DNA of 64,000 nucleotides, from NCBI GenBank assembly GCA_034432595.1, contig DAOUBT010000004.1:18892-82891 (forward strand), written 5' to 3'. The notes under the pieces are model-generated. The model was not told where the DNA came from and did no database searches. It saw only the letters and a list, made by a program, of their open reading frames with translations. Below are positions 8,705-29,600 of the stretch, in pieces. Positions within the stretch are counted from its first letter, which is position 1; each line of letters starts with the position of its first letter. This stretch comes from Anaerolineae bacterium. Lineage in GTDB: Bacteria > Chloroflexota > Anaerolineae > B4-G1 > SLSP01. A program made the translations under genes and the position numbers.

Positions 8705-8727
8705 CGCGCGGCGAGGCAAGTCAGGCA

Positions 8728-8764
8728 GGCCAGTCTGTTGGGATAACACCCAACAGGCTGGCCG
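8728..8764 (+). terminator. 15-bp stem-loop directly after the giant CDS; no U-tract, so a transcript-stabilising or weak terminator hairpin
   Basis: ggccagtctgttggg-ataacac-cccaacaggctggcc, with one G-U pair in the stem. Confidence 0.3.
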
Positions 8765-9036
8765 CCCGATATCGAGTCGCCCCATGCGGGTTCAGACATC
8801 AGTAAGGGACCGCGCTCCCACCCGGAGCAGCGCCGGGCATCGCTCCGCCGGGTTTTCAACCGACGATCCTTAACCTTGCGGGCATCCACAAGCTGATCAG
8901 ACGTGGCGGGCGTTGATGAGCACTTGACTATTTAGCCATTTCGGATACTTTTAAGAGGGATGGGTCAACGTCAGCGCGACGTTAACCAGACCTGAAATTG
9001 TACCATGATGGTATCCAACCAATCAAAGGGGGATTT

Positions 9037-9498: not shown

Positions 9499-9504
9499 TC
9501 ACTT

Positions 9505-11268: not shown

Positions 11269-12540
11269 GTGGAAGCTATCCAACAGCAGATGCAACACCT
11301 CCAGAAGCGACTGGCTGAACTGGAGCGCGAAAAGCAGCACCTGGAAAAGCTGGTACGCATCAGCCGGATGCTGAGCGCCACGCTGGACTTGAATCAACTG
11401 CTGCAAATTATCCTGGATACGGCATCAGAAACCTTAGGGGCAGAATCCACCTCTATCTTACTTGAAGATGCACGCACAGGTGAACTTTACTTCGCCGCCG
11501 CCACCGGTACCCCGGTCGAAGAACTGCGCAAAATTAAAGTACCCATGGAAGGGAGCATCGCCGGGACGATTTACCGCACAGGTGAACCGCAAATCGTCAA
11601 CGACTTCCAGAAGGACCCGCGCCACTTCAAAGGAGTGGATGAGAAAATTGAACACGTCACCCATTCCCTTATCGGGGTGCCGATGGTGGTGCGGCAGCGC
11701 TGTATTGGGGTGCTGGAGGTGGTGAACAAACAAGAGGGGCTTTTTACCGAAGAGGACGTGAGAATCCTCAGCGATCTGGCCGCACAGGCCGCTTTAGCCA
11801 TCGAGAATGCGCGTCTGGTCGCCCGCCTGCGCGAGGCCAATCTGCGCTTGGCCGAACTGGATAAGCTCAAGTCGGATTTTATCAGTATTGCCTCCCATGA
11901 GCTGCGCACCCCTCTAGGCCTCATCCTGGGATATGCCAGCTTTTTACAAGAGCAGGTCTCGGCAGATATGAGCGCACAGGTCGAAATGGTGCTGCGCGCT
12001 GCCACGCAATTGCAAAGCCTCATCGAAACCATGACCAACCTGCAATATCTGGAAAGCGGCGCTTTTCAGCTTAAACGTGAGGAACTGGTGTTGCAGGATA
12101 TCGCCGCCGAGGTGGTGCTGGAGTGGCGCCCCATGGCCGATAACAAACGGCAAACCCTGCGTGAGCGCTACCCCTACAAACCTGTCCGCGTCTTTGCCGA
12201 CCGCTCGATGCTCAACACCATTATCGCTAACCTTTTGCATAACGCGATCAAGTTTACCCCCACAGGCGGCACTATCGAGGTGGCGATTCAAGTGCAAACT
12301 TCGACCGTAGCTGTCAGCGTTACCGATACCGGTCCTGGCATCCCCAAAGAAGACCTGGAACGCATTTTCGAGCCGTTCTATCAGGCGGAAGATCACCTGA
12401 CGCGCCACCATGATGGCCTGGGACTGGGGTTATCGGTTGCCAGGGGGATGGTGGAAAGCCACGGCGGACGCATCTGGGCCGAAAGTGTGCCTGGACGCGG
12501 AAGCCGCTTTGTCTTCACGCTGCCGTTGAAGCCCGGATAA
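11269..12540 (+). CDS. GAF-domain sensor histidine kinase (coiled coil, GAF, HisKA, HATPase_c)
   Basis: GTG start with an AAGGAGGG ribosome-binding site. H-box IASHELRTPL. G-boxes GLGLGLSVARGMVESHGGRIWAES. Confidence 0.85.
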   Translation: MEAIQQQMQHLQKRLAELEREKQHLEKLVRISRMLSATLDLNQLLQIILDTASETLGAESTSILLEDARTGELYFAAATGTPVEELRKIKVPMEGSIAGTIYRTGEPQIVNDFQKDPRHFKGVDEKIEHVTHSLIGVPMVVRQRCIGVLEVVNKQEGLFTEEDVRILSDLAAQAALAIENARLVARLREANLRLAELDKLKSDFISIASHELRTPLGLILGYASFLQEQVSADMSAQVEMVLRAATQLQSLIETMTNLQYLESGAFQLKREELVLQDIAAEVVLEWRPMADNKRQTLRERYPYKPVRVFADRSMLNTIIANLLHNAIKFTPTGGTIEVAIQVQTSTVAVSVTDTGPGIPKEDLERIFEPFYQAEDHLTRHHDGLGLGLSVARGMVESHGGRIWAESVPGRGSRFVFTLPLKPG

Positions 12541-12759
12541 GTAGAACCGTGGGAGTTTCTAAGTATGGTCCGGCTTTTAGCATCGCTCCCCCACCCTGTC
12601 TCAAAAAGCCCTGGTATTTTCCAGTGTCTTCTGCAGTGTGCGGGTTTATTCGACTAAACTCTGACCAACAAGAAACCGTTTTAGCCCAACACGGTGACAC
12701 CCCGATACCCATACCCGAAGCGCCCTGCCTGCGCTCCGTTTGTCTGTAAGGAGGTGGTC

Positions 12760-15096
12760 ATGCGCAAAGTCAGGCTTATCCTGTTCGCCCTGATACTCCT
12801 GCTTTGGATGGAAGGGTTCTCCATCCCGGCACGCGCACAGGCTGATGATGACGCGGCGCTGCTGGAGCGCTATGCCCCGGTCTTCTATTTCCATCCAGAT
12901 GAGTACTTCCGCCCCCAACCCGTGGAGGTGATGCTGCCCGAAGCGCGCCTGCGCCGCAGCTCCCCCTTCTGGTTCGATGTGAACGTCCTGGCTTCGCTCA
13001 ACCTGCGCGATTTCTTAAACCTGCCACCGGAAAAGAGCTTCTTCCTCGACGTGTGGTATGGGAGCGAGGGGAGCGCCGCCACCGATTACACGGCCCACCG
13101 CAGTTATTACCGCGCGCTCCTCAGCCCGGAGGCGGGCGGACCTGAGCCTGCGGTGTACGGACGGGTCCACCGCGACGCGCAGGGCCACATCACCGTGCAG
13201 TATTGGGCGTTCTATTTCTACAACGACTGGTTCAACAAACACGAAGGCGACTGGGAAATGCTACAGGTCATGCTGGACCCCGACGGCACGCCGCGCTGGG
13301 TGGTGTACAGTCAGCATCACGGTGGAACGCGCCGCGCCTGGGAGGATACGCCGCGCTACGCACAGACTCATCCCATGGTGTACGTGGCGAAGGGATCGCA
13401 CGCTAATTATTTCGCCGGCGATGAGAGTTATCCCAACGGCATGACGATTGGCAAGACGCGCGTGGAGCTGCTCGACCGCACCGGTAGCGTGGAGCAACTG
13501 CGTCCGCGCGTCATCCGCCTGCCGGAGCGCGCGGAAGTGGTCGCCAATCCGGCAGCCTGGCCGGGCGCCGAATGGCTGCCTTACCGCGGGCGTTGGGGGG
13601 AAAACGCGCCTCAGGGCGATTTCAGCGGTCCCTATGGGCCAGCGGATAAGGGCACGCAATGGGACGATCCCTACGCCTGGGGCATGGCTCAACCGCTGGA
13701 TGTGGAGGTGTGGTACGCGCACCGCCTGCGCGTGTTCGCCTCTGTGCCAATCAGCGCCACGCTCAATACCGCGCCCGGCGCTTCCCTCGCCGGCGTCGAG
13801 ACGCTCAGCCACGGTCTCATCCTGCACAGCGACCCGCCGGAAGAGGGCGTTGTCATCACCTTACAGGCCGCGCCTGATACCGAGATGGATGTTAGCGCGA
13901 CCTGGCCCGAACGCAGCGCGGCGCGCGTCACGCACTGGAGGTTCGCCAACGTGCGCTTTGATGCCACCGGCACGGCCCTGCTCTTCCTGGGGCCCACATC
14001 CCCCAAAATTGTAGTAGGGCAGATGAGCTACCTGCCCACCACGAGCAGCAGTAACAGCGCCACGTGGGATACTCCCGACCTGGTGTGGATGGGAAGCCTG
14101 CTTACCGCGCAAGAGGTGGCGGTGGGCTTCGGTTGGATTCTCGTCGGCAGCATCCTGCCCGCCCTGGTGCTGCTGGGACTGGTGTATAACCTGGATTATT
14201 ACGAACGCGAACCGAAGCGGCTGGTGTTCTTTACGTTCGTGTGGGGCGCTGTGCCCGCGGTGCTGGTGCTCGTAGGGGCGGCTATCTTCTTCCGCCTGCC
14301 CACCTCGCCCCTGACACGCGAAGCGCATATCGCGTTACGCGCCGGGTTGCTCAGCGCAGCAGCGCAGGAGCTGATCAAGGGCGCAGCGGTGTTTTTCATT
14401 TTCTGGCGCTACCGGCGCGAGTTCGACGGGGTGTTCGACGGCATCGTTTACGGTGCGACGGTGGGGTTCGGCTTCGCCATGATGAGTCAGTTGCTCCGTC
14501 AGCTCAGCGATTTTGTGCTGTGGGGCTTTTCCAGCATGACGTTGGAGACGTGGGCGCAGGGGGTGCTCTTTGCCCTGCATCAGGCCATGTACAGCGCGTT
14601 TTTCGGCGCGTCGCTGGGTTGGGCACGGCTTTCTAATGACCGCAAGGCGCGGGTTTACGTGCCGGTTTTGGGGATGGTGGCCGCCATCGGCGCGCACGGG
14701 TTGCATTTGCGCTGGCTGAACAGCCTGCAAGGGCTGACGCCGGCTTTCGTCGTGCTTTCGCTGGCAGGGCTGTTGTTCACGGTGGGGGTAGGGATATGGG
14801 CTTTGTATCGTCAGCGCGTCTGGCTGGAGGCCATGCTCCCCCAATGGGAGAGCCTGGGGGTGAGCGCAAGTTTGTTGAAGCCGGGACGACGCTGGTGGTA
14901 TGAGACGCGCGCGCTCTTCCGCCATGGGCCGCGCGCCTGGCGCGCGCTGCGGCGCTTCCATAGCTTGCTGATGGAGTGGGCTTTCAAGGCGGAACAGGCA
15001 CGACTCCGCCCCGATGAGGCCGCGCTGGCGCAGGAGGCAGAACAGCTACAGGCGCGCCTGCTCGCTTTGTGGCCGCGCGTCAAGGGATACTTGTAG
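12760..15096 (+). CDS. Fusion protein: N-terminal secreted domain of unknown function (about 400 aa, HEGDWE motif) plus a C-terminal PrsW-like multi-pass membrane protease domain
   Basis: GGAGG 7 nt upstream of the ATG at 12760. Signal/TM sequence MRKVRLILFALILLLWM. C-terminal half has at least 7 transmembrane helices with PrsW-type motifs: QELIKG (EExxK-like), FALHQAMYSAF (FxxxH) and HGLHLRWLN (HxxxN). Confidence 0.65.
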   Translation: MRKVRLILFALILLLWMEGFSIPARAQADDDAALLERYAPVFYFHPDEYFRPQPVEVMLPEARLRRSSPFWFDVNVLASLNLRDFLNLPPEKSFFLDVWYGSEGSAATDYTAHRSYYRALLSPEAGGPEPAVYGRVHRDAQGHITVQYWAFYFYNDWFNKHEGDWEMLQVMLDPDGTPRWVVYSQHHGGTRRAWEDTPRYAQTHPMVYVAKGSHANYFAGDESYPNGMTIGKTRVELLDRTGSVEQLRPRVIRLPERAEVVANPAAWPGAEWLPYRGRWGENAPQGDFSGPYGPADKGTQWDDPYAWGMAQPLDVEVWYAHRLRVFASVPISATLNTAPGASLAGVETLSHGLILHSDPPEEGVVITLQAAPDTEMDVSATWPERSAARVTHWRFANVRFDATGTALLFLGPTSPKIVVGQMSYLPTTSSSNSATWDTPDLVWMGSLLTAQEVAVGFGWILVGSILPALVLLGLVYNLDYYEREPKRLVFFTFVWGAVPAVLVLVGAAIFFRLPTSPLTREAHIALRAGLLSAAAQELIKGAAVFFIFWRYRREFDGVFDGIVYGATVGFGFAMMSQLLRQLSDFVLWGFSSMTLETWAQGVLFALHQAMYSAFFGASLGWARLSNDRKARVYVPVLGMVAAIGAHGLHLRWLNSLQGLTPAFVVLSLAGLLFTVGVGIWALYRQRVWLEAMLPQWESLGVSASLLKPGRRWWYETRALFRHGPRAWRALRRFHSLLMEWAFKAEQARLRPDEAALAQEAEQLQARLLALWPRVKGYL

Positions 15097-16231: not shown

Positions 16232-16267
16232 GCAAAATTGGACTCCGCGGCTTTTCGCCTTATAATA
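16232..16267 (+). promoter_or_regulatory. Candidate sigma70-type promoter (TTGGAC, 16 nt spacer, TATAAT) for the AAA+ ATPase gene
   Basis: Perfect -10 TATAAT at 16261-16267, about 25 nt upstream of the ATG at 16293. A -35-like TTGGAC lies 16 nt upstream of the -10. Confidence 0.4.
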
Positions 16268-16292: not shown

Positions 16293-17822
16293 ATGACGTT
16301 TGAAGAACAGTTAGACCTGTACTTGCGGGCGCGGGTCACGCTCATCGTGCTCAACACCATCGAGGAAGAGCGGGCTTTGCAGGCTATCAAGGCGGTGTGC
16401 GAGAAGCAGAAGCGGCCCTGCCTCACCTGGGATGTGGCGGATGGGTTTCAGCTCCTCAGTGGAAATGCCGCACCCCCCGCTTCCGTGCGCGATCCACTGG
16501 GCGCGCTGGAGCAGATTGAGAATGCCGCCGATCCGCCCCTGTTCGTGCTCAAGGACTTCCACGAGTTGTGGAACAATCCGCAGGTGAAACGCAAGTTGCG
16601 CTCGGCAGCGCAAAGGCTGCGCTACAGCAAGAAATCGCTGCTGGTGCTCACGCCAAACGGCAAAGTCCCGCCCGAATTGAGAGATGATGCGGTCATCACC
16701 GAGCTTCCCCCACCCTCCGCCGCCGAGCTGGATGCTGTGCTGGAGCAGCTTCTCAAAACGCCCGGCGTGCGCAACGACCTCACCCCGCTGGGACGCGAAA
16801 AGCTGGTGCAGGCCGCGCTGGGATTGACGCTGGCACAGGCGCAACGGGTCTTTGCGCGCTGCGTGGTGCGCAACGGAACCCTGGATGAGCGCGACATTGA
16901 TGAGGTGACGGAGGAGAAAAAGCAAATTATCCGCGAAAGCGAGGCGCTGGAATTTTACAGTGCCTCCGAGACGCCGGATGATGTGGGCGGCCTGGACGTA
17001 CTCAAACAGTGGTTACGTCTGCGCGAACGCGCCTTTACGCAGGAGGCACGCGCCTACGGGCTGCCCGCGCCCAAAGGTATCGCTCTCCTTGGCATTCCGG
17101 GCACCGGCAAGAGCCTCACGGCTAAAATGATTGGGGGGATGTGGCATCTGCCTCTGCTGCGCCTCGATGTCGGGGCGTTGTTCGGCAGTCTGGTGGGGGA
17201 ATCGGAGGAACGCGCGCGCCGCGCTTTGCGCCTGGCGGAGACGGTGGCCCCCTGTGTGGTTTGGATTGACGAGATGGAGAAAGCGCTTTCGCACGGCGGC
17301 CTGGATAGCGGCACGAGCACGCGCGTCTTTGGCACCATTCTCACCTGGATGCAGGAAAAGACCGCGCCGTGTTTTGTGGTGGCAACGGCGAACGACATCA
17401 GCAGCCTGCCACCCGAATTGTTGCGCAAAGGGCGCTTTGATGAGATTTTCTTCCTGGATTTGCCCACGCAAGAGGAACGCGAAGCTATCTTTGCTGTGCA
17501 TTTGCGCAAACGTAAACGCCTGCCACAGGATTTCGACCTCCACCTGCTGGCCCAACAGTCCGCGGGCTACGTGGGCGCCGAAATCGAACAGGCGATTATT
17601 GACGCGATGTACGTAGGGTTCGATGCCGGACGCGATATTACCACGCAAGACATTCTGGAAGCGCTCAAGCGACAGGTGCCGCTCTCCGTCTCACAGCGCG
17701 AACGCATCGAAGCCCTGCGCGCGTGGCTGATGGAGGGACGCGCGCGCTCGGCCTCCTTCCGCGAATCGCGCGAGGCGCAGCAGCGTTTTGTGCCCATTCA
17801 GCTTGAGGCTTCTGAGGTTTGA
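16293..17822 (+). CDS. Ycf46-like AAA+ ATPase (N-terminal domain plus C-terminal AAA module)
   Basis: Walker A GIPGTGKSLTAKMIGG. Walker B VVWIDEMEKAL. Sensor/Arg-finger region VVATANDISSLPPELLRKGRFDEIFFLDLP. Overall pattern matches cyanobacterial Ycf46-family ATPases. Confidence 0.85.
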   Translation: MTFEEQLDLYLRARVTLIVLNTIEEERALQAIKAVCEKQKRPCLTWDVADGFQLLSGNAAPPASVRDPLGALEQIENAADPPLFVLKDFHELWNNPQVKRKLRSAAQRLRYSKKSLLVLTPNGKVPPELRDDAVITELPPPSAAELDAVLEQLLKTPGVRNDLTPLGREKLVQAALGLTLAQAQRVFARCVVRNGTLDERDIDEVTEEKKQIIRESEALEFYSASETPDDVGGLDVLKQWLRLRERAFTQEARAYGLPAPKGIALLGIPGTGKSLTAKMIGGMWHLPLLRLDVGALFGSLVGESEERARRALRLAETVAPCVVWIDEMEKALSHGGLDSGTSTRVFGTILTWMQEKTAPCFVVATANDISSLPPELLRKGRFDEIFFLDLPTQEEREAIFAVHLRKRKRLPQDFDLHLLAQQSAGYVGAEIEQAIIDAMYVGFDAGRDITTQDILEALKRQVPLSVSQRERIEALRAWLMEGRARSASFRESREAQQRFVPIQLEASEV

Positions 17823-18041
17823 GCATGGGGGAACAAGCTCTGCTCTCCCTGCCTCGCCCCTCGCGGTCAGAGCGCCAAGAGAGGCACGGGCGTTCAAGCC
17901 ATGTTCCGATTGCATCCACCTGAGGCGCGCCGACGAGGTGCGGATGACGATGAGAGTGGCGTTGCACATGGGCGGGCGTTCCGATGGGCTATTCTTTAAC
18001 CCTGCGCGCTTTGCGGCTCAACCGGTGTAAGTGGAGCTACC

Positions 18042-20138
18042 ATGTCCTTGCTTGAAAGCATCCTTTTTGACACCCCCTCACGTTCGCTGCCATGGCGTCT
18101 GTTGCAGCGGCTCCTTGTGCGCTGGGTGGCGCTGAATCCAAAGCCGGTTGAGCTTGAGTTGCTGACGCGCGCCCTTCATCACCCTGATGCGGAGGTGCAA
18201 CGCATCGCCGAACGCGGCCTGCGTCAGCTCAAGCGAGATTACCTCAAAACGCTGGTCTGCCTGATTTGGGCGCGCACGCGCGATCCACGCCTGGAGACGC
18301 TGCTGAGCGAGTTGGGCTGGATAGCCGAAAGGCCACCGGAGGTGCGCGTCCTGACGTTGTTGCTGCAGGGAACGCCGGAGGAGGTGGGAGCGCGCATCGG
18401 CAGCACGATGGTCGAGCCTTTGCTGAAGGCCTGTGAGGATGCGGACCCGCGCCTGGCGGAACGGGCGCGCGCTGCGCTCCTGGCCCTGCGCCGTAAGGAT
18501 GCCCGCGCCGCTCTGTGGACCATCGTCCGCGAGAACGGCCATCCCCTGGCCCTGAAAGCGCTGGCGCAGAGCGGAGAACCGCCCCGAGACGAAAACGAGC
18601 GCGCGTTGTTCTGGTTCTTGCTGGGCCAATGGCAGGAGTATGAGGCGCTGGATTTCGACCGCCGGCGCTTGCGCGCAGTGTACGCCACCGCTTCGGCTGA
18701 GCTGCGCGCGCGCATCCGCGAGCAGTTGCGCGCCGCCGGACGCCCGGACTTCTTAACGGTGCTCACCGGCGGGGAGACGCGCCTGCAGGCCGAGGCGCTC
18801 TCGCCCGCCGAGACGCGCACCGTGCTGGAACTGCTGGTGGGGATGGGCGCATGGCGTGAGGTGTGGGACCTGGCGCTTAAGGTGCAGGTAGCCTGGGGAG
18901 CCTGGGCGGTGGAACGATTGGTCGCCGCCGGCTGGGAGCCTGAGGACGCCGAAGAGCAGGCCCTGTTGCGCACCTTGCACGGCCTGACGCAGGCCGGATT
19001 GCTGGCCGTGCCGGATGAAATCCGGCGGCGGCAGGGTTTGCTCGATTCGCACACGCTCGTCCGCGTGCCGGGACGGGTGAACGATGTGGTCTTCGCGCCA
19101 CGTTCACCCTGGATCGCTGTGGCGACCGGCACACGCCACGCGGTCATCTGGGATTACACGCAGGGCAAGCGCAAGATGTTGCTGGGGAATCATTTCGACC
19201 ACGCGATAGGGAGCGTGGCCTTCACGCCCGATGAGCGGGTGCTGCTGGGGGAACGCACCAATCAAAAAGAGCCGGTGGATTTGTTCCTGTACACCATGCC
19301 CCCGGATAACACCATGCGCCGCCTGGGATCCCATGAGATGATGATAGCGCTGGCCGTCCCCAATGACCGCTGGGCACTTTCGGCGGGACGCGAGGGTCTC
19401 CTGCGCCTGTGGGATTTGGAAGATGGTCGTCTGCTGCAACAGCATGAGACGCAAGGCGACTGGACTCGTCAATTGTGCGTGGTGGACGAAGCGCATGTGC
19501 TCTATCTGGGCCGGCTGATGCGCCTGATAAGCCTGCCGGATTTGAAAGAGCAGAAATGGCGCTTCACCGAGGGGCGCATCACCGCGGCAACGGTGTGCGG
19601 TAAGGATGTGCTGCTGGGACGATTCAGCGGCGAGGTGATCGCCCTCGATCTGAGCGATATGGGCCGTGCGCCGAAGCGCGTCATCAGCAGCTATGAGAAG
19701 GCGGTGGTGGGCCTGGCAACGCTCGCGCGCTATGGATTGGTGTTGAGCGTGGATGGCTCCGGCTTGTTGCGCGTCCTCGATACAGAGACGTATGAGGTGC
19801 GCCACGAACAGCGTATTGGGAAAGGCCGCGCCACCTCGTTACACCTTTCGCCGGATGAGGCTTTCATGGTCCTGGGATTGAGCGAAACGGCCTTCGCGCT
19901 GTTGGATTTGCGCTTCCTGGCCCTGCCGTGGCTCTTTGCCCAACCGTTAGCCCGGCTCGGTCCCGACGAGACGGCGCGCATCCGCTGGCTGGCCGGGCAG
20001 ACCCATCTGCTCCCCGATGTGCAGCGAGCCTTGCAATTTGCGGCGCATATCCTACACTATCGCTGGCGTTACGAAATCGAGCTGGAGCAGGCGCCGGAGC
20101 TGGTCGCAGGAGAGTTCGATATCGAGATTGAGGGGTAA
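18042..20138 (+). CDS. HEAT-repeat plus WD40/beta-propeller repeat protein
   Basis: N-terminal HEAT-like repeats (HHPDAEVQRIAERGL; ACEDADPRLAERARAAL). C-terminal WD-like blades (AVIWDY; LLRLWDLEDGRLL; LLRVLDTETYEV). Ribosome-binding site GGAG. Confidence 0.7.
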   Translation: MSLLESILFDTPSRSLPWRLLQRLLVRWVALNPKPVELELLTRALHHPDAEVQRIAERGLRQLKRDYLKTLVCLIWARTRDPRLETLLSELGWIAERPPEVRVLTLLLQGTPEEVGARIGSTMVEPLLKACEDADPRLAERARAALLALRRKDARAALWTIVRENGHPLALKALAQSGEPPRDENERALFWFLLGQWQEYEALDFDRRRLRAVYATASAELRARIREQLRAAGRPDFLTVLTGGETRLQAEALSPAETRTVLELLVGMGAWREVWDLALKVQVAWGAWAVERLVAAGWEPEDAEEQALLRTLHGLTQAGLLAVPDEIRRRQGLLDSHTLVRVPGRVNDVVFAPRSPWIAVATGTRHAVIWDYTQGKRKMLLGNHFDHAIGSVAFTPDERVLLGERTNQKEPVDLFLYTMPPDNTMRRLGSHEMMIALAVPNDRWALSAGREGLLRLWDLEDGRLLQQHETQGDWTRQLCVVDEAHVLYLGRLMRLISLPDLKEQKWRFTEGRITAATVCGKDVLLGRFSGEVIALDLSDMGRAPKRVISSYEKAVVGLATLARYGLVLSVDGSGLLRVLDTETYEVRHEQRIGKGRATSLHLSPDEAFMVLGLSETAFALLDLRFLALPWLFAQPLARLGPDETARIRWLAGQTHLLPDVQRALQFAAHILHYRWRYEIELEQAPELVAGEFDIEIEG

Positions 20139-20164
20139 CTCCAGAGGAAACCGGGAGGGTTATC

Positions 20165-20662
20165 ATGCCATTCTGGTCACGCCGGAAAAAAGAGGGGGCG
20201 CCCGCGGAGGCGCGTATGTTGCAGCTCGAAGCGGAGTTACAGGCCTTGCGCCTGACGTTGGAAGAGCGTGAGGCGGAACTGCGCAGGTTACGCGCTCAGT
20301 GGGAACAGGAACGCGCGCGCAGCACGGCACAAGTGGAAGCGCAGGTGCAGGCGCAGATGGCGGCGCTGATGGAAGCCGCGGCCCCGCCTGTGGCGCAGGT
20401 GCTATTGCAGGGGTCGCTCATCGAAGCGGGGCAAGAGGTGCGGGCGCGGGACGTGTGGCTGGTGGTGCAGCGTCTGGTGCGCGTCCTGGAGGCGCACGGC
20501 CTGGAGGTGAGCACGCCCATCGGCACAGAGGTGGCCTTCGATCCGGACCGGCATCAGCCCCTGAGCGGGAGTTGCCCTGCAGGGACGCGCGCGCGCGTGC
20601 GGCTGCCGGGCCTGAGTTACCGCGGACGGCTCATCCACAAGGCGGGCGTCGTTCAGGAGTGA
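20165..20662 (+). CDS. grpE: GrpE-like nucleotide exchange factor (short, 165 aa)
   Basis: GGAGGG ribosome-binding site. N-terminal coiled coil (LQLEAELQALRLTLEEREAELRRLRAQ). C-terminal beta-domain motifs FDPDRHQPLS and YRGRLIHKAGVVQE. Confidence 0.7.
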   Translation: MPFWSRRKKEGAPAEARMLQLEAELQALRLTLEEREAELRRLRAQWEQERARSTAQVEAQVQAQMAALMEAAAPPVAQVLLQGSLIEAGQEVRARDVWLVVQRLVRVLEAHGLEVSTPIGTEVAFDPDRHQPLSGSCPAGTRARVRLPGLSYRGRLIHKAGVVQE

Positions 20663-20716
20663 AGGGGCGTGGCAACACCCTTTAAGGTCAAAACGCTCAG
20701 GCAGGGATAAAAGGCC

Positions 20717-22303
20717 ATGGCAGGACGTTTGGGGATTGATTTTGGCACGTCGAATACGGTGGTCGCGCAGTGGGATGCCCTGGCGAAGGAGGGAAAGCCG
20801 CTGCTCATCCCGGAATACAGCCATTTCTACATGCAGGGCGGAGAATCCATCGCCGTCGTGCCCTCGCTCATCCACTATACAACGGACGGGCGGCGCTGGA
20901 TTGGCGAGCAGGTGCGACAGCAGCAATTGCTGCAAGCGCCGGGCACATTCCGCTGGATGAAGCGCTACATCACGCAGCGCAGCCCCTATCGCGTGCGCGT
21001 GGGCGAGCGCGACATCACCCCCTTCGAGGCAGCGCAGGATTTCCTGACAGCGGTGTTGCTCTTCGCTGGTCAGGAGGTGGCGTTGGAAGATGAGGAAGTG
21101 GCCTTCAGCGTGCCGGTGGAGGCCTTTGAGGACTACGAGGATTGGCTGACGGGCGTGGCACAGCAGGCCGGGATGCCGCGCTTCCGCCTGATTGACGAGC
21201 CATCAGCGGCGGCGCTGGGCTACGGCGCCCCCATCCGCCCCGGCGACGTGTACCTCATTTTCGATTTTGGCGGTGGGACGGTGCACGCGGCGATGGTGCT
21301 CATCGAAGAGGCGGAACATGCAGATAGCGGCCGCCGTTGCCGCGTGTTGGGCAAGGCCGGCGCGGATTTGGGCGGTGCGGTGGTGGATCAGTGGCTCTTC
21401 ATGGATATTCTGCGCCAACAGGGCCGCTCCGAAGGGGATGAGGTGGTGCGGCGCGTGAGCAATCTGCTGCTGGTGGAATGCGAGCGCGCCAAGATTCAGC
21501 TTTCCACACAGGAGCGGGCGTCCATCAGCGTGGTGGATCCGCAAAGTGGGGCGGCTTTAGGGGCGGATTACAGCCGCGCGCAATTCGAGAGCCTGCTGGA
21601 AGCGAACGGCGCCTTCACCACCATCGAGCGGACGGTGCGCCGCGCGCTGCACGAAGCCTACGAGCGCGGTTACGACGAGGATCGCATCAAGGCGGTGTTG
21701 ATGGTGGGCGGCAGCAGTCAAATTCCGGCCATCCAGAGCCTTTTGCAGCGCAGTTTCGGACGCGAGCGGGTCATGCTCAACCGCCCCTTAGATGCTATCG
21801 CCCGTGGCGCAGCCGCTTTCGTTGCCGGCACGGATTTCTACGACCACATTCAGCACAGCTACGCCATCCGCTACCTGAACCGCGAGAAAAACGAGCACGA
21901 TTATTGGACGATTGTCGAACGCGGCACACCCTATCCGGCAGCGCAGGTGGCGCGCCTGACGGTCAAGGCGTCGTATGATCAGCAGACGCATCTGGGTGTG
22001 GCGATTTTCGAAGTGAGCGAGACACGTCAAAGCGCCGCGGGCGCGTTCGAGCTGGTGTTCGATCCGAGCGGCGCGGCGCGGTTGGCCCCCGTCAGTGCCG
22101 AGGCCACGTATCGCCGCCAATATTTCTGGATGAACGAAAAGCAGCCCACCTTCCTGGTGGCCGATCCGCCCGCGCAACAAGGGGAAAAATGTTTTGAAAT
22201 CGTGTTCAGCATAGATGCCAACAAGCGTTTGCTGCTCACCGCGCGGGATTTGCGCACAGGTAAGCTGGCCTACAAGGATTATCCGGTGGTGAAACTGACA
22301 TAA
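20717..22303 (+). CDS. Hsp70-family protein with a complete actin-like ATPase domain but a truncated substrate-binding region (528 aa)
   Basis: IDFGTSNTVVA (phosphate-1), DEPSAAALGYG (connect-1), IFDFGGGTV (phosphate-2), VLMVGGSSQIPAIQ (adenosine motif). Only about 140 aa follow the nucleotide-binding domain. Confidence 0.85.
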   Translation: MAGRLGIDFGTSNTVVAQWDALAKEGKPLLIPEYSHFYMQGGESIAVVPSLIHYTTDGRRWIGEQVRQQQLLQAPGTFRWMKRYITQRSPYRVRVGERDITPFEAAQDFLTAVLLFAGQEVALEDEEVAFSVPVEAFEDYEDWLTGVAQQAGMPRFRLIDEPSAAALGYGAPIRPGDVYLIFDFGGGTVHAAMVLIEEAEHADSGRRCRVLGKAGADLGGAVVDQWLFMDILRQQGRSEGDEVVRRVSNLLLVECERAKIQLSTQERASISVVDPQSGAALGADYSRAQFESLLEANGAFTTIERTVRRALHEAYERGYDEDRIKAVLMVGGSSQIPAIQSLLQRSFGRERVMLNRPLDAIARGAAAFVAGTDFYDHIQHSYAIRYLNREKNEHDYWTIVERGTPYPAAQVARLTVKASYDQQTHLGVAIFEVSETRQSAAGAFELVFDPSGAARLAPVSAEATYRRQYFWMNEKQPTFLVADPPAQQGEKCFEIVFSIDANKRLLLTARDLRTGKLAYKDYPVVKLT

Positions 22304-22496
22304 CAAGAACCCACGGTCAGGGTTCGCCAGGGCCTGGACTTGCAAGGCCCATCGGGGAAGGCAAGGACTTGCGCGGCTGGATGCCAGCCTGCTACTCCAA
22401 GCAGGCAGCTTAAAGCTGTACCTGAGCGGCAACAGGCCCGGAGCCAGTCGGGGTTAAGACAGCGCCCCGGCCCCTTAATCAGCACAAGGAGGTAAC

Positions 22497-22880
22497 ATGT
22501 CCCATTTTACTCGCGTTAGAACGCGCCTGAAGGAAAAGGCCTACATCATAGCTGCGCTGCAACAGATGGGATACCAGGTCCACGATCAACGGGGAAGCGT
22601 GCGCGGCTTTGGAAACAAACAGGTCGAGGTCGAGTTTAGCGTTCGCCCCCGTCCGATGAGCTACGCCATCGGTTTCCGCAAGACGGGAGAAGGGTACGAC
22701 ATCATCGCGGACTGGTGGGGCGTGCGTGGGGTCAGGCAAGCCGAGTTCACGCGCAAACTGACGCAACTTTACGCCTATCAAGCCGCAAAGCAAAACCTCG
22801 AAGCGCAGGGCTTCACGTTAGCGGAAGAGCAGGTAGACGCGGAGGGGCGCATCCATCTTCTCCTGCGCCGCATGGTTTGA
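22497..22880 (+). CDS. DUF1257 (Ycf35-like) protein
   Basis: GGAGG ribosome-binding site. N-terminal MSHFTRVRTRL... and overall length and pattern typical of the Ycf35/DUF1257 family. Confidence 0.75.
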   Translation: MSHFTRVRTRLKEKAYIIAALQQMGYQVHDQRGSVRGFGNKQVEVEFSVRPRPMSYAIGFRKTGEGYDIIADWWGVRGVRQAEFTRKLTQLYAYQAAKQNLEAQGFTLAEEQVDAEGRIHLLLRRMV

Positions 22881-22891
22881 GGAGGGATGCC

Positions 22892-23095
22892 ATGAAGTAT
22901 CAAGAGATTGAGGTCATCATCACCCCCAAAGGGGAAGTGGAAATTCGTGTAGCCGGGGTCAAGGGCATGGGCTGTGTGGAGCTGACGCGCGCCCTCGAAG
23001 AAGCCCTCGGCGAAGTGCTCGCGCGCGAGTTGCAACCCGCGGCTTACGAGAGCGAGCAGGAGGAGCAGAATCAGGCATGGCTGAAGACGAGCTAA
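22892..23095 (+). CDS. DUF2997-family small protein (67 aa)
   Basis: GGAGGG ribosome-binding site. MKYQEIEVIITPKGEVEIRVAGVKGMGCVELTRALEEALG matches the DUF2997 signature (IE-x-xIxPDG-V...GxxGxxC...LExxLG). A 12-nt gap separates it from the preceding DUF1257 gene. Confidence 0.7.
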   Translation: MKYQEIEVIITPKGEVEIRVAGVKGMGCVELTRALEEALGEVLARELQPAAYESEQEEQNQAWLKTS

Positions 23096-23661
23096 CGCTC
23101 CATGCTTTCTGGCCGCGCAGCGCCGCCAACGGGCCGGGTCTGCGCGCCGTGATCTGGGTGCAGGGCTGCACACTGCATTGCCCCGGCTGCTACAATCCCC
23201 AGACGCACGATCCGCAGGGCGGGACGCGCATCACCGTGGCGGAGCTGTTGGCGCAGCTCCTGCGCCTGCCGGACATCGAGGGGGTGACCATCAGCGGCGG
23301 CGAGCCGTTGCAGCAGATGCACCCGCTCCGGCAGCTTTTGCAGGGCGTGCGCAGCGCCTCGTCGCTATCCGTCATCCTCTTTACCGGCTACACCTGGGAG
23401 GAAATTCAGACGCTGCCGGAGCACAGCGCGCTGCTGGCCTGTGTGGACGTGCTCATCAGTGGACGGTACGTGGCCGCGCAGCGCCTGGCGCGCGACTTGC
23501 GCGGCTCGGCCAACAAAGAGGTGCGCTTTCTCACGTCGCGCTACACCCCCGCGGATTTGAGCGCCGTCCCGGAAGCCGAGGTTATCATCACGCCCGATGG
23601 GGATGTGGTGTTAAGCGGCATTCATCCTTTGCGTTGGGCGGCCAGTCCGAGGGAAAGCTGA
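23077..23661 (+). CDS. Radical-SAM activase of the NrdG/PflA-like 4Fe-4S single-cluster family
   Basis: CTLHCPGC (Cx3Cx2C) followed by YN. SAM motif ISGGEPL. 194 aa. Overlaps the DUF2997 stop by 19 nt. Confidence 0.75.
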   Translation: MAEDELTLHAFWPRSAANGPGLRAVIWVQGCTLHCPGCYNPQTHDPQGGTRITVAELLAQLLRLPDIEGVTISGGEPLQQMHPLRQLLQGVRSASSLSVILFTGYTWEEIQTLPEHSALLACVDVLISGRYVAAQRLARDLRGSANKEVRFLTSRYTPADLSAVPEAEVIITPDGDVVLSGIHPLRWAASPRES

Positions 23662-24296: not shown

Positions 24297-25826
24297 CTAC
24301 TCCACCAGACTTTCCACTTCGTAAACCGGTTCCGGATGCTGCTGCCCCTTAATCCAGACCGGTGGCAATTCACGAACACGCACTTTTTCCCGCACCAAAT
24401 CGTAAGTGCGCTGACAGATAAGCACTTTCCACGCCGCAGCCAACTCTTGCAGCGCGTGGGCCTTGTTAACCGTGACCCCGATCGCCGTAAAGTTAACCAG
24501 GTTAGACGTGCCGAGGTTGCCCACCACCGCTTCACCCGTGCTGATGCCGATCCCCATCGGCAGGCGGTACTGGATAGGCAACTCGGTATGCAAGGACGCA
24601 ATGCGCTGCAAAATAGTCATAGCAGCGCGCACCGCACGCAGCGCATAATCCGCTTGCGGCAGGGGCGCATTGAAGAAAGCCATCATCCCATCCCCCAAAA
24701 ACTTATCGAGCGTGCCTTCTTGCTCCAAAATCACCGATGCCGCGCATCCCAAATGCTGATTGAGCACCCCCATCAAGACTTCGGGCGTGGTCTGCGAGCT
24801 GAAAGCCGTGAAGCCGCGAATATCGGCGAAGAGCACGCTGATGCTCTGGCGCTGTCCGCCGGGTTGCACGTCCTGCGGGTGGCGCAGGATGCGCTCCACC
24901 ACCTGCGGGGCCACGTAATGTTCAAACAGGGCGCGCAACTCGCGCTTTTCCCGTTCCCGGCGCTCCTCCACTTCGTTGAGCAGCCGCACATTCTCGATAG
25001 CAATGGCCGCGTAGTCGCCCAACATCTTCAGAAGCAAACGATCGTGCGTGGAAAAGGGCTGACGGTTGGCTTTGTTGCTCAGGGTCAGGGCGCCGAGCAC
25101 CTGTCCGCGCGATTGCAGGGGAACGCTGACCATCAAGTCAGTATCGTGCAGCATCAGAGCACGGCTTTCCAGGGAGCGATACTCATTGTTGGCATAGAGG
25201 CGGTGAGTCGCCACGTGAGGCTCGCCCGTCTGCGGATCGAGGAGCACAAGCAACCCTTCCAACGCGCCGGTAATGTAAAGCGCGGCATCCACAATGCGCT
25301 CCATAAGCTTCTCGCGCTCGTACAACATCGTCACAGACTTGCTCACGTGATACAGAGTATCCAGTTCCTTCAAGCGCTGTGCCAGGTCTTGATTGGTGAC
25401 CTTGAGCTGTTGCATCAACTGATCGCGTTCACGCTCCAGACGTGCCTGATACAACACGCGCTCCATGGCGCTAAACAACTCATCCGCGGTGAAAGGCTTG
25501 GGCACGTAATCGCGCACCCCAAGCCGAAATACCTCCACCGCCACGGATTCAGAGCCATACGAGGTGATGAGGATAACAGGAGCAAAAAATTCATGCTCTT
25601 TGAGCTTGCGCAGGACTTCGATGCCGTTCAGGCGCGGCATTTCGTAATCCAGGAGAATCAAATCAGGTTGCAGTTCCAGAGCCTTCTCAACACCATCCTG
25701 ACCATCCACCGCCACACTGACGCGATACCCCTGCGGTTCGAGAAGCGAATCCTTGATGAACTCGCGAATGTTGGGATTGTCATCCACAACCAGCACATGG
25801 ACCGGCCCTGCAAGATTGTTAGCCAT
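24297..25826 (-). CDS. Response-regulator receiver, GAF, class III adenylate/guanylate cyclase
   Basis: REC domain: VLVVDDNPNI...LILLDYEMPRLNG. Cyclase homology domain: ISVLFADIRGFTAFS...MGIGISTGEAVVGNLG. Confidence 0.85.
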   Translation of the reverse strand: MANNLAGPVHVLVVDDNPNIREFIKDSLLEPQGYRVSVAVDGQDGVEKALELQPDLILLDYEMPRLNGIEVLRKLKEHEFFAPVILITSYGSESVAVEVFRLGVRDYVPKPFTADELFSAMERVLYQARLERERDQLMQQLKVTNQDLAQRLKELDTLYHVSKSVTMLYEREKLMERIVDAALYITGALEGLLVLLDPQTGEPHVATHRLYANNEYRSLESRALMLHDTDLMVSVPLQSRGQVLGALTLSNKANRQPFSTHDRLLLKMLGDYAAIAIENVRLLNEVEERREREKRELRALFEHYVAPQVVERILRHPQDVQPGGQRQSISVLFADIRGFTAFSSQTTPEVLMGVLNQHLGCAASVILEQEGTLDKFLGDGMMAFFNAPLPQADYALRAVRAAMTILQRIASLHTELPIQYRLPMGIGISTGEAVVGNLGTSNLVNFTAIGVTVNKAHALQELAAAWKVLICQRTYDLVREKVRVRELPPVWIKGQQHPEPVYEVESLVE

Positions 25827-26659: not shown

Positions 26660-29600
26660 TTACGGCAGAGGAAGTGTGAACAAGAAACGACTGCCCTGCC
26701 CCAGTCGGCTCTCAACCCAAATCGTCCCGTGATGATGCTGCATAATCTCGCGGCAAATGGCGAGGCCCAAACCACTGCCACCGCGCTGCCCCCCACCCTG
26801 CTGAAAACGTTGAAACAAACGCGCCATTTCACCCTCACGGATACCGGGACCGCTATCCGTAACACTGACCAGCACCACGGGATAGGGCGCGGGCAGACCA
26901 GTCTCGGCGCCAGGTTGACGGACCCCATACGGCGCCACCTCTGTTCCCGGTGGGAGCACCTCCGCTGCGATGACGATATCCCCATGATCGGTGAACTTGA
27001 GCGCATTGCCCAACAGATTTGTAAGTACCTGTATCATGCGATCCGCATCCCCCACCAACACCGGTAAGTCGGGCGCGATTTGCGTTCGCACCGGCACGCG
27101 CTTTTCTAAAATTAACGAGCGCAGCGCCGCTAATGTGGACGTAATCACATCCTGCAGCGTGAAGGGATCGGATTTCCACTCCAGCCGCCCGGCTTCCATC
27201 TTGGCCAGATCGAGCACGTCATTCACCAGACGGGTGAGGCGCGCGCCCTCCTGCGCTATGATGGACAGGTTGTCCGTGATACGCGCCGCGGCTTTCTGGA
27301 CTTCTGCATCATCCGCGGGTAGTTTGGGCAAGATGTGGCGCGTGAACTGCCGCCCGATAAGCTGACTGAAGCCCAGGATGGAGGTCATGGGAGTGCGCAG
27401 CTCGTGCGACACGGTGGACACAAAATCGTCCTTCATGCGCGCCATCTCCACATCCGCCGTGATGTCGTGCATCACGGTCACGACGCTTCCGCTCCAGGCA
27501 TCCTGCCCGCCGAAAGCCACCGAAGTGCTGCGGTAGATGCGTGGCGAATGGGTGTATTCCACACTCGCGCTGGTATCCGGCGTTTGTTGTGCCAGCGTCA
27601 ACGCCTCCAGCAAAGGCGGATAGGGTAACACCTCCTGTAAAGGCAACCCAATCAGGCGCGCTGCTTCATGTCCTACCATAGCACAAAAAGCGGGATTGAC
27701 AAGTTCGATGCGCCCCGCCGCATCGGTTACCACCAGGCCATCCGTGATATGGCGCAGAATGGCATCCAGCCGCGCGTGTTGTGCGCTCACAGTCTGATAG
27801 GCACGCTCCAGCTCCTGCGTGCGCGCCTGCACCTGTGCCTCCAGGGAGCGACTGTAGCGCTCCAGCTCTTGCGCCTGCTCCCTCACCCGATCCAACAATT
27901 GCAAGCGGCGTACCACCGCGCCTAACTGATGCCCCACCGTCTCGGCCAGCGCGATTTCCTCATCGCTCCAGAAGCGCGGCTGCGCATCGCCTACCAGCAT
28001 CCCGCCAATGGTTTCCCCTTGATTTTTGATGGGGATGGTGAGGGAAGAGCGGAATCCCAAACGCATCAAGAATGGACCGGTCCGGGTACGCAGTCCGTCC
28101 AGCGGCGTTGTCGTCCAATCTTGTACCGCCATCGGCACGCGCAGATCCAGTTGGGAAGCATACTCACGCGCCTCGTCAAAAACGCGCACAAAATCGGGCA
28201 GGCCACGCACGGCATACTGAGCGCCAATCCAGATGCCCCCCAGGGTGGTTTGCAGCGTTCCCATCACCAGATCCAGCACCTGCTCCAACAACCCGGCCAG
28301 GTCGTTTGCTACCGTCGCCGCCGCGATGATGGCATTCTGGGTCTCCAGGTAAGCGGCGCGACGCTGCGTCTGCTGCAGCAGGCGTGCATTCTCGATGGCA
28401 ATCGCGGCCTGAGCTGCCAGCATCTCCAGCAACACAATGTCATCCGCGCTGTAGGCGTTGGGCTGATAGCACTGGGCCGAAAGCACGCCGAAAATGCGTT
28501 GTTCCAGGCGCATGGGGACGAAGAGCAGCGAACGCACCGGCGTCGCGCCTACCTGAATCGCCTGTGCGCCGATAGCGTCCAGGCTCTGCTCCCCTATCAG
28601 CAAGGCCTGACCGGTGGTAACGACGTGCCAGCTCAGGCCCTGCCCGCGTGGTGCCCGCACGCCGGTGTACACCTGACCACGGTCCACGGCATAAACAACC
28701 TCTATGGCCTCGCCATCCTCCGTCACCACGCCCAGCAAGAAAGCATCGCAGGGCATCAACTGCTGTGCGGCGCGATGGATGGCCGCATACAGCGAGGGCA
28801 AATCGCGCACGGCGCTGATAACTTCCTGTCCCACCGCGTGGAGCACCGCGCGCCGCTGTCCGGCTTCCAGCGCGGTCTGATACAGCCGCGCGTTCTCCAA
28901 CGCAACGGCCATCTGCGGTGCCAACAGATGGAGGCGTTCAGTATAAGCCTCCTCATACAGGCCCGGCGCCCAACGCACATCCAGCACGCCCACGACGCGC
29001 GCGCCCAGCAGCAGGGGTAACACACAGCGCACGGCGGCGCGGTCCTCCTCCGGCGTGTGCCAGGGACGGCCCTCGCGCAACGCAGCGCGCACCACTTCGT
29101 CGTGGCCCTCATCAACCTGAAGATAAAGAAAAACCTCTTGTGCCTGCACCAGCCCACGCACGGCCTGCGTGATGGTCTGCAACAGCGGTTCCAGTTCGAG
29201 TTCCGCCGCCACCAGGAGATTGAAGCGCTGGATGGTTTCCAGTTCCTCGCGGCGATGCAATTCCTCGCGGTAGAGACGGTTGTTCTCCAGGGTCAGCGCC
29301 ACCTGCTCGGCGAAGAGCGCCGCCACCTGCACGTGATCAGGCGTGAGGGTGCGCGGGGTAAGCTGCTCCAAACAGAGGACGCCCCATACTTCATCGCGCA
29401 CCAGCAGGGGAACACCCATCCACGCCACCGGTTGTTCGGCGGAAGCCAGAGGGCACATGGAAGGCACGCGTTCCAGAAGCACAGGGCGACGCGCTTCCAG
29501 GACCTGCGCCAGATGTTGCTGTGGCAATTCGGCATCGGCGCAGGGCGCGTTAGCTCCTTCCGCGTTGCGCCAGCTCAAGCAATGCCAGTTCCCGGCGCGA

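Follow-up and report, generated by a model that had tools for sequence, protein, structure and literature searches.

Seven co-oriented genes on the plus strand of an Anaerolineae (Chloroflexota) contig, at positions 16293-23661 of the 64,000-nucleotide stretch of DAOUBT010000004.1 analysed here (the window), were shown to form one conserved, horizontally mobile multi-gene module. They encode an AAA+ ATPase, a WD40 repeat protein with a weakly HEAT-like region, a GrpE-like factor, an Hsp70 without its lid, a DUF1257 and a DUF2997 protein and a NrdG-like radical S-adenosylmethionine enzyme (rSAM). That the seven genes act as one functional module is in our judgement nearly certain; confidence that the module is real is high, and confidence in any specific mechanism is moderate to low. 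From the sequence evidence, we consider it equally likely to be right or wrong that the module is a self-contained ATP-driven protein-remodelling machine coupled through a DUF1257·DUF2997 adaptor to a [4Fe-4S] enzyme. The initial annotation had proposed a dedicated remodelling or maturation machine as a candidate new system; this is upheld for the module, and the remodelling role is what we infer. All seven predicted open reading frames (ORFs) were recovered at their coordinates, and the same seven genes were called independently in four further assemblies of this organism. The features are as follows, with protein lengths in amino acids (aa).

16239-16266, +: sigma-70-like promoter match TGGACT-16-TATAAT directly upstream of the AAA+ gene, 10/12 consensus positions
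16293-17822, +: AAA+ ATPase, 509 aa; an alternative upstream GTG at 16287 is possible
18042-20138, +: repeat protein, 698 aa, with WD40-type propeller matches
20067-20135, +: signature C-terminal tail RYEIELEQAPELVAGEFDIEIEG of the repeat protein, in which a [FY][DE]I[ED][ILV] strand motif occurs twice at the very end of the chain
20165-20662, +: GrpE-like nucleotide-exchange factor, 165 aa, short and divergent (Pfam GrpE)
20717-22303, +: Hsp70-like protein, 528 aa, lidless (Pfam HSP70)
22497-22880, +: DUF1257 (Ycf35-type) protein, 127 aa (Pfam DUF1257)
22892-23095, +: DUF2997 protein, 67 aa (Pfam DUF2997)
23077-23661, +: NrdG-like rSAM, 194 aa (Fer4_12 and Radical_SAM)
23524-23658, +: C-terminal extension of the rSAM, 45 residues past the NrdG model, a hairpin ending in VPEAEVIITPDGDVVLSGIHPLRW

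Conservation and mobility of the module

One genome per species (185,579 species) was scanned with patterns specific to this Hsp70 family, and about 207 of these genomes contained the cluster-type Hsp70. The best 80 loci, classified by hand from record titles, belonged to Chloroflexota (about 48), Cyanobacteriota (11), Verrucomicrobiota (5), Planctomycetota (4) and Ca. Moduliflexus (3), with single contigs from Armatimonadota, Bacteroidota, Desulfobacterota, Acidobacteriota, Actinomycetota, Bacillota and Pseudomonadota, whose assignment needs caution as most are metagenome-assembled genomes. Hidden Markov models (HMMs) built from the window proteins and first-round hits were then run over all ORFs of the loci. 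Among the 44 full loci, which extend at least 6 kb upstream and at least 3 kb downstream of the Hsp70 gene, the neighbours were a repeat protein in 41, DUF1257 in 38, DUF2997 in 38, the AAA+ ATPase in 34, the rSAM in 28 and GrpE in 26. The count for DUF2997 rose from 35 to 38 after unmasking of the overlap-filtered copies in L051, L065 and L066, and the partial loci L030 and L031 held two more such masked copies; all 38 full loci with DUF1257 carry DUF2997 as well.

The commonest order was AAA+, WD40 (one to five genes), GrpE, Hsp70, DUF1257, DUF2997 and rSAM, sometimes followed by another WD40 gene. The same set was circularly permuted in L044, L049, L077 and L078 and took other orders elsewhere, including L087 and L088; a Sumerlaeota contig (L087, JAFGFK010000304.1) carries rSAM-AAA-GrpE-DUF1257 and a metagenome contig AAA-GrpE-DUF1257-DUF2997-Hsp70. 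GrpE and the rSAM are optional, the latter being absent from all cyanobacterial copies with the downstream flank covered. Flanking genes were unrelated between lineages, and the window's own upstream genes were not conserved elsewhere. The check on gene order and set that the initial annotation had called for found them kept in Chloroflexota and Cyanobacteria as well as in eight or more other phyla. Recurrence in dozens of unrelated genomes with different flanks places the arrangement far beyond chance. Outside the set, the sole neighbours to recur were an MFS transporter, GlmS and a rhodanese, which are syntenic within Anaerolineae and were rejected as further members. In L087, a gene with an FGE-sulfatase domain, truncated by the contig end (10768-11112), occupies the position expected for WD40 and by its place may encode an alternative sensor or client.

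A copy was also carried on pPg_01, a 225-kb plasmid of the cultured cyanobacterium Pseudanabaena galeata CCNP1313 (L089, NZ_CP112875.1, 1130-19613). Together with the co-occurrence, the permuted orders and the differing flanks, this plasmid copy indicates a unit that is under selection and moves horizontally. The 116 flanking or inserted ORFs compared with Pfam and PADLOC were mostly housekeeping genes, with few defence or mobile genes. Some loci carry insertions among the cluster genes. The pPg_01 cluster is interrupted by RelE/ParE and PIN toxin-antitoxin genes, with an 'ATP-binding protein' and a hypothetical gene separating DUF1257 from DUF2997; L063 (4981-7868) holds a restriction-modification unit (EcoO109I-like and TdeIII-like endonucleases and a methylase), and L005 (8461-9768) holds DUF559/HTH/Gp49-type genes.

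Within the window, the genes are separated in order by 219, 26, 54, 193 and 11 nt, and the last pair, DUF2997 and the rSAM, overlaps by 19 nt. This overlap is as initially annotated; the 12 nt given between DUF1257 and DUF2997 was a coordinate difference, with 11 bases intervening. By its match to consensus, the site at 16239-16266 is a possible operon promoter. No plus-strand terminator-like site was found between cluster genes, one weak match lies within the Hsp70 ORF, and such sites in the cluster were no more frequent than in shuffled sequence. No Rfam match to an RNA element was obtained in the cluster. We regard the ORFs as coupled because they overlap or nearly abut both in the window and in the phage copies described below.

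The ATPases and the repeat protein

The Hsp70 matched Pfam HSP70 (PF00012) with 118 bits over residues 5-367, and its nucleotide-binding motifs DFGTSN, DEPSAAA and DFGGGT were invariant in 21 homologues; the linker, DFYDHIQH, is unusual. In the PDB the C-terminal 156 aa matched solely Hsp70 substrate-binding domains (SBD). The segment LVADPPAQQGEKCFEIVFSIDANKRLLLTARDLRTGK aligned to DnaK residues 433-469, the last strands of the beta domain (E 0.0014), and the protein ends about 10 residues past the last matched SBD-beta strand, the alpha-helical lid (SBD-alpha) being missing. As the C-terminus coincides with the end of the DnaK beta domain, the protein is lidless and not devoid of a substrate-binding domain; the 'truncated substrate-binding domain' of the initial annotation therefore holds for the lid and fails for the beta domain, which is retained. 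The family is tight, with the top 120 listed relatives being 61-100% identical, about 530 aa long and from several phyla, and with 54-66% identity between bacterial phyla. Its scores missed the equivalog threshold of DnaK (TIGR02350, 119 bits, cut-off 822) and both cut-offs for HscA (TIGR01991 and PRK05183, 109 and 114 bits, cut-offs 708 and 620). The GrpE-like protein was a marginal match to PF01025 (28.8 bits against a cut-off of 25.8, model positions 6-161 of 165) and reached 30.9 bits with its best NCBIfam equivalog model, for which the cut-off is 137.

These two proteins bear on the alternative that a grpE-dnaK stress operon lies by chance beside the NrdG of an anaerobic ribonucleotide reductase encoded elsewhere. 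Generic family names fit it, and PHROG labels the rSAM family as the anaerobic ribonucleotide reductase small subunit. We give it next to no credence, as it is largely refuted by conservation: the set recurs in many phyla with differing flanks and permuted orders, the Hsp70 is a separate lidless family (listed relatives at least 61% identical) far below the DnaK and HscA cut-offs, the GrpE is divergent, and the rSAM carries a subfamily tail and has no recurrent NrdD neighbour.

The AAA+ ATPase consists of a family-specific N-terminal domain (about residues 1-225) and a single classical Cdc48/FtsH-type AAA module, matching Pfam AAA (PF00004) with 96 bits and AAA_lid_3 with 28.8 bits. Walker A, Walker B, sensor 1 and the arginine fingers are intact, with GIPGTGKS, WIDEMEK, ATAN and LLRKGRFD conserved, and identity was 58-75% across 13 bacterial cluster copies from several phyla. 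The best PDB matches, p97/Cdc48/VAT, were limited to residues 227-462, and the first 225 residues had no Pfam or PDB match; the idea that this domain is a degenerate AAA fold was not supported by sequence (hhalign probability 2%). We deem both ATPases competent because their motifs are intact, the two proteins are conserved across phyla and the Hsp70 has kept its beta domain.

The initial annotation had called the AAA+ protein Ycf46-like. Pfam, NCBIfam, PHROGs and PADLOC contain no model for Ycf46, nor could a sequence bearing that name be retrieved. The ATPase presumably resembles Ycf46 in size and layout (an N-domain of about 225 aa and one AAA module) and may be its orthologue.

The repeat protein comprises an N-terminal helical region, a WD40 beta-propeller, a C-terminal helix and the signature tail. 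Of its HEAT/WD40 label, the WD40 part is borne out by propeller matches and the HEAT part is weak (HEAT_2, 17 bits against a cut-off of 27.7). Other genomes encode one to five paralogues per cluster. The tail signature, found in almost all of about 84 tail-bearing repeat proteins from related loci, runs from a helix through R[FY]DIE[VI], 6-10 residues and GEFDIE[IL] to the stop after a further 0-20 residues; it is specific to the cluster system and marks its repeat-protein paralogues. The tail Gly was retained in 57 of 60 tails at rSAM-containing loci and in 17 of 24 elsewhere, a partial correlation confounded by phylogeny. A hidden J-domain was rejected, as the 'HHPD' of the window protein is not conserved and the HPD tripeptide occurs in 14 of the 84 repeat proteins. 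Fusion of GrpE to longer WD40 proteins at grpE-less loci was also dismissed: the tails are complete, no room is left for a fused domain, and WD40 proteins are just as long at loci that do have GrpE, so that grpE is merely optional.

The small proteins and the radical SAM enzyme

Both small-protein assignments made initially were confirmed, DUF1257 by PF06868 (80.2 bits, cut-off 22.2, model positions 1-102 of 103) and DUF2997 by PF11211 (58.1 bits, cut-off 24.1, model positions 1-47 of 47). DUF1257 adopts a platform fold, as is typical of domains that heterodimerise. DUF2997 consists of a beta-hairpin, a G-x-x-G-x-x-C loop, one helix and a variable Q/E-rich tail (AF2 model, pLDDT 72), and as modelled the hairpin and helix look incomplete on their own. 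G14, G25 and C28 of DUF2997 were invariant in 81 sequences. A HMMER search of 1.84 billion proteins gave 1061 cluster representatives of DUF2997 at E<=1e-3, among them a natural DUF1257-DUF2997 fusion (P0310). This fusion, the platform fold of DUF1257 and the incomplete look of DUF2997 argue for a physical link between the two proteins.

The DUF1257 N-terminus Met-Ser-His-(Phe) (MSHF, window 22497-22508) is near-invariant from bacteria to phages, and by this pattern the His at position 3 (2 after Met removal) could provide a metal-binding or catalytic N-terminus. In three distant genomes the AAA+ gene is directly followed by the gene for another, divergent DUF1257 paralogue (L020 2523-2930, L032 5729-6142, L078 5856-6263), with ADWWG replaced by ISEYD. 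The DUF2997 homologues P0339, P0378 and P0389 have N-terminal extensions of about 35-40 residues resembling organelle transit peptides, and on that resemblance may be algal copies encoded in the nucleus.

DUF1257 and DUF2997 are near-universal and housekeeping-like in cyanobacteria and plastids (PMC4284462; bioRxiv 10.1101/2025.10.13.678797), and both were still labelled functionally unknown in 2026. In cyanobacteria they belong to a conserved duf2997-ycf35-fed7 cluster (Cassier-Chauvat and Chauvat 2014, PMC4284462), whose [4Fe-4S] ferredoxin Fed7 binds the DnaJ-like protein Sll1384, and algae carry DnaJ-Fed7 fusions (PMC4284462); that cluster is thus also tied to the Hsp70 system. It resembles ours in setting the DUF1257/DUF2997 pair beside a [4Fe-4S] protein, whereas here the Fe-S partner is a NrdG-like rSAM, the order is DUF1257-DUF2997, and Hsp70, GrpE, AAA+ and WD40 lie within the cluster. 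Ycf46 is a stress-induced, (p)ppGpp-controlled, KaiC-interacting AAA ATPase whose mechanism is unknown, and its canonical operon of three genes is described without mention of Hsp70 or an rSAM (bioRxiv 10.1101/2025.07.21.665879). Red-algal plastids tend to lose ycf35 and ycf46 together (PMC5940233).

These Fe-S neighbours raise the alternative of Fe-S delivery or repair in the manner of HscA-HscB-IscU, in which the Hsp70 would free a cluster from a DUF2997/DUF1257 scaffold with a Cys ligand and pass it to the rSAM or Fed7. The likeness lies in a dedicated Hsp70, one short motif on a dedicated client and the Fe-S link. The Hsp70 nucleotide-binding domain scores alike against HscA and DnaK models, DUF2997 has an invariant Cys, the partner is the rSAM here and Fed7 in cyanobacteria, and plastids lose ycf35 and ycf46 along with the Fe-S-related ycf34 and with pbsA (PMC5940233). 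We hold this alternative to be very improbable: small proteins with a single Cys each would be poor cluster scaffolds, all HscA models score far below cut-off, and our cluster has no cysteine desulfurase, no HscB or other J-protein and no IscU, and adds an AAA+ ATPase, WD40 proteins and an rSAM, the first two of which have no counterpart in Fe-S assembly.

The rSAM matched Fer4_12 (121 bits) and Radical_SAM in Pfam, and its nearest NCBIfam model was NrdG (TIGR02491), where 117.3 bits fell narrowly below the cut-off of 126.1; its sole PDB relative was PflA. The CX3CX2C cluster motif, GCTLHCPGCYN (CTLHCPGC), is kept in all cluster copies. The C-terminal extension, VPxAEVIITPxGEVxLSGIDPLxW, is subfamily-specific, occurs in all bacterial cluster copies and in phage copies, and its hairpin is similar to the one at the N-terminus of DUF2997 (hhalign probability 76%, E 2e-5, 16 columns). 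The initial annotation had described an orphan activase; the enzyme is indeed a tightly coupled cluster member with no glycyl-radical enzyme seen alongside. In agreement with that annotation, no glycyl-radical enzyme or NrdD was found among nine large window ORFs outside the cluster and three flanking ORFs, and the 80 loci held no recurrent NrdD/PFL-like or other glycyl-radical-enzyme neighbour family, such genes being possible elsewhere in the genomes. The pairs NrdD-NrdG and PflB-PflA, with the spare part GrcA/YfiD, share with the cluster the activase CX3CX2C motif and the small size of the enzyme, and differ in that the cluster loci examined have no adjacent glycyl-radical enzyme and the rSAM has an extra C-terminal hairpin.

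Could the rSAM act as a switch on its own neighbours? It would then install a glycyl or thiyl radical, or another modification, on the DUF2997 loop or the WD40-tail Gly; oxygen-labile glycyl-radical cleavage would free the tail, and the chaperones and the AAA+ ATPase would load, repair or remove the carrier. The rSAM is closest to activases of glycyl-radical enzymes and bears a docking hairpin like that of DUF2997; in bacteria and phages alike its gene adjoins or overlaps that of DUF2997 or DUF1257, and it is missing from the copies of oxygenic cyanobacteria; the Gly and Cys of DUF2997 are invariant, and the tail Gly is commoner at rSAM-containing loci (57/60 against 17/24). However, neither the two DUF proteins nor the WD40 tails conserve the canonical RVxG[FWY] motif, the DUF2997 motif is unchanged in rSAM-less clusters, the tail-Gly correlation is incomplete and confounded by phylogeny, and a 67-residue glycyl-radical carrier has no precedent. 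We therefore find such a switch decidedly unlikely. A canonical glycyl-radical motif on the DUF proteins was rejected: the window DUF2997 has IRVAGV where the family consensus is V[RH]G[VA]KG, the 'VRGFG' of DUF1257 is degenerate at many rSAM-containing loci, and rSAM-less clusters carry identical motifs; a non-canonical target is possible.

Phage cores and the proposed machine

Relatives of the AAA+ ATPase were encoded in 197 IMG/VR contigs, the best 80 being near full-length with 35-44% identity. Within about 6 kb, these 80 contigs held DUF2997 in 37, DUF1257 in 32, the NrdG-like rSAM in 20 and a lidless Hsp70 in 1, counts that rest on bacterial HMMs and are likely underestimates. With the Hsp70 itself as query, no cluster-type Hsp70 was found in IMG/VR. 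Two orders were typical, AAA, (RecA-like), DUF2997, rSAM, DUF1257 with overlapping ORFs, and rSAM, x, AAA, x, DUF1257, DUF2997. The phage rSAMs retain the C-terminal hairpin and phage DUF2997 retains G-x-x-G-x-x-C. PHROG families of unassigned function were matched by the AAA+ ATPase (phrog_8638, full-length, 518 bits), DUF1257 (phrog_20456) and DUF2997 (phrog_23133), and the rSAM family has the reductase label given above. The ATPase also occurs in 57 cultured-phage records, among them cluster-O mycobacteriophages (Corndog gp96) and phages of Rhizobium, Pseudomonas, Rhodobacter and Aeromonas. Corndog has the ATPase alone, and Rhizobium phage vB_RleS_L338C (L283, KF614509.1, 4947-8266) encodes AAA+ (gp050), an unknown protein (gp051), DUF1257 (gp052) and DUF2997 (gp053). 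As many phage contigs and L338C carry the core without Hsp70, GrpE and WD40, the initial view that a chaperone module was inserted into an AAA+/DUF1257/DUF2997 core is supported. Viral contig L230 (IMGVR_UViG_3300028603_002755, 3524-7727) has the order DUF1257-rSAM-Hsp70-AAA-DUF2997 with a lidless Hsp70 of 508 aa, and neither GrpE nor WD40 was detected within about 6 kb. In the T4-like cyanophage contigs L096 (7841-8881) and L100 (6287-7330), DUF2997-DUF1257 lie immediately upstream of hsp20, an adjacency that may be a further tie of the DUF proteins to proteostasis. That the core occurs in cultured phages and some 200 viral contigs suggests a role in the interplay of phage and host.

Several phage loci had further features. 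L205 (IMGVR_UViG_3300008954_000005, 5986-9592) carries AAA+, a RecA/KaiC-like ATPase, DUF2997, the NrdG-like rSAM and DUF1257 in overlapping ORFs, with a ThiF/E1-like gene about 3 kb upstream of the core; the large phage contigs L203, L208, L211, L214, L217, L218 and L222 have the same type of set. By eye, the L230 core adjoins a gene resembling NAD-dependent DNA ligase, and clamp-loader and methylase genes surround the cyanophage pair in L096 and L100. The products gp050-gp053 of L338C are all annotated as hypothetical and offer a tractable model of the core module. In the Streptococcus satellite phage Javan368 (L284, MK448457.1, 3604-8187), the AAA+ gene lies at the end of a 14-kb satellite with a 573-aa protein that looks coiled-coil-like by eye and proteins of 154 aa and 160 aa; DUF1257 and DUF2997 were not detected there and PADLOC gave no match.

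The main rival to a remodelling machine is a conflict system, which bacteria would use for defence against phages, and phages for counter-defence or host take-over. The WD40/HEAT paralogues would sense the invader, the ATPases set a threshold or signal, and the rSAM act as effector or as maker of a signal or toxin. Such a role would suit a core common in phages, an AAA+ gene in a Streptococcus phage satellite, a patchy distribution by horizontal transfer over at least ten phyla and a plasmid, one to five repeat proteins per cluster, and toxin-antitoxin, restriction-modification or OLD/PtuA-like genes inside the cluster in three lineages. The AAA module also resembles IetA, by 66.9 bits in NCBIfam (equivalog cut-off 510) and 71 bits in PADLOC, both from the generic AAA module alone; to this module the likeness to IetAS is limited, and IetS or any other protease is absent from the cluster. 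Across all components and phage partners, PADLOC returned generic IetA/TRIP13 AAA similarity only.

The module is moreover enriched in filamentous or multicellular lineages, a trait shared by the NTPase conflict systems of PMC7159879. In accessory clusters of multicellular bacteria, GTPase-centric conflict systems include GrpE and an Hsp70 of their own, which in some cases lacks the peptide-binding domain, and likewise have repeat-protein partners (Kaur, Burroughs, Iyer and Aravind 2020, PMC7159879). However, their defining components, GAP1-N2 or DO-type GTPases, tubulin homologues and FNIII/DnaJ proteins, are all absent here; the seven cluster proteins contain no GTPase domain and no recurrent GTPase neighbour was seen. 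NrdG and Cdc48 go unmentioned in PMC7159879, where a single radical SAM enzyme appears in an unrelated FtsH ternary system. Further, the cluster has no recognisable effector (nuclease, protease, TIR or pore-former), its flanks are mostly housekeeping with a weak defence-island signal, its ATPases are unusually conserved for defence genes, and DUF1257/DUF2997 are near-universal and housekeeping-like in cyanobacteria and plastids. We rate a conflict role as unlikely on the whole, and still as an alternative to be taken seriously.

The core of the module is the AAA+ ATPase, of the phrog_8638 type, with DUF1257 and DUF2997, usually alongside the NrdG-derived rSAM; to it the bacterial form adds a private lidless Hsp70, usually the GrpE-like factor, and one to five helical-repeat/WD40 proteins, each with a double FDIE[IV]E tail. 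In the remodelling machine that we favour, these WD40 proteins may be dedicated clients or substrate adaptors of a two-ATPase machine, with the C-terminal tail as a handle for the beta substrate-binding domain of Hsp70 or for the AAA+ ring; the candidate tail peptide for the Hsp70 domain is APELVAGEFDIEIEG. Hsp70/GrpE and an AAA+ hexamer would assemble or disassemble WD40 scaffolds, by analogy with Hsc70 on the clathrin tail and ClpB-DnaK on aggregates. As a heterodimer, DUF1257 and DUF2997 would serve as the adaptor for a [4Fe-4S] protein, which in cyanobacteria would be Fed7 and here the rSAM, docked by its DUF2997-like hairpin. Through the docked Fe-S partner the machine might respond to redox state, oxygen or iron, or the rSAM might modify a component.

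Several observations weigh against this machine. The AAA+ pore loop, by eye SLVG, has Leu-Val and no aromatic residue, so that threading of substrates is not assured. The acidic tail is an atypical DnaK-type substrate. Among the ORFs of the 80 loci, no J-domain co-chaperone was found in or near the clusters, a loose J-domain-like pattern giving a single chance match without HPD in a locus-edge ORF of L022, and the window genes had no DnaJ Pfam match. Fold searches gave no functional hint, and the phage versions without Hsp70, GrpE and WD40 mean that the core must work without the proposed clients.

The ClpB-DnaK-GrpE disaggregase likewise joins an AAA+ protein, an Hsp70 and a nucleotide-exchange factor. 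Compared with it, the cluster ATPase has one AAA module, an unrelated N-domain and no M-domain, the Hsp70 is lidless and there is no J-protein, and the components are private, with dedicated WD40 proteins, two DUF proteins and an rSAM. No description of the cluster was found in the searchable literature, in line with the initial statement that it had not been described as a defined system. The parts belong to known families and the system to none that we found; we rate it as a new kind of system and a strong candidate for an undescribed molecular machine.

Tentatively, and on the lower side of an even chance, AAA+/DUF1257/DUF2997 with or without the rSAM may be the core of an unrecognised, widespread machine shared by bacteria, cyanobacteria, plastids (Ycf46, Ycf35, DUF2997) and many phages, in which the rSAM or a ferredoxin gates the ATP-driven remodeller by way of the adaptor pair. 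The window cluster would be its fullest form, with a lidless Hsp70 and tail-tagged WD40 clients. DUF1257/Ycf35, DUF2997 and Ycf46-type ATPases of cyanobacteria, algal plastids and phages have been without a mechanism for decades, and the cluster ties these orphan families to interpretable partners, which opens binary interactions and assays to test. If true, the shared core gives the first mechanistic handle on three 'ycf'/DUF orphans, and glycyl-radical-type chemistry may serve as a protein switch, a new use. A lidless Hsp70, an AAA+ ring and an rSAM, if they work together, would be a new kind of chaperone system.

The remaining window is ordinary chromosome with many GAF/PAS sensor kinases. 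Directly upstream of the cluster, a gene at 12694-15096 (+) encodes an 800-aa protein with a PrsW-family intramembrane protease domain and a large N-terminal region with a weak Vps62-like match; it is not conserved together with the cluster. A giant ORF of 2889 aa (35-8704, +) has a right-handed beta-helix region and many Ig-like/FixG_C/NPCBM_assoc repeats, and probably encodes a surface or adhesin-type protein. The surroundings of the cluster (11269-12540, 24297-25826 (-), 26660-40262 (-), 42087-43820 and 61106-63628) are unusually rich in GAF/PAS histidine kinases, response-regulator hybrids and GAF-linked nucleotide cyclases, and the sensors of the window include one 1686-aa kinase with four GAF domains.

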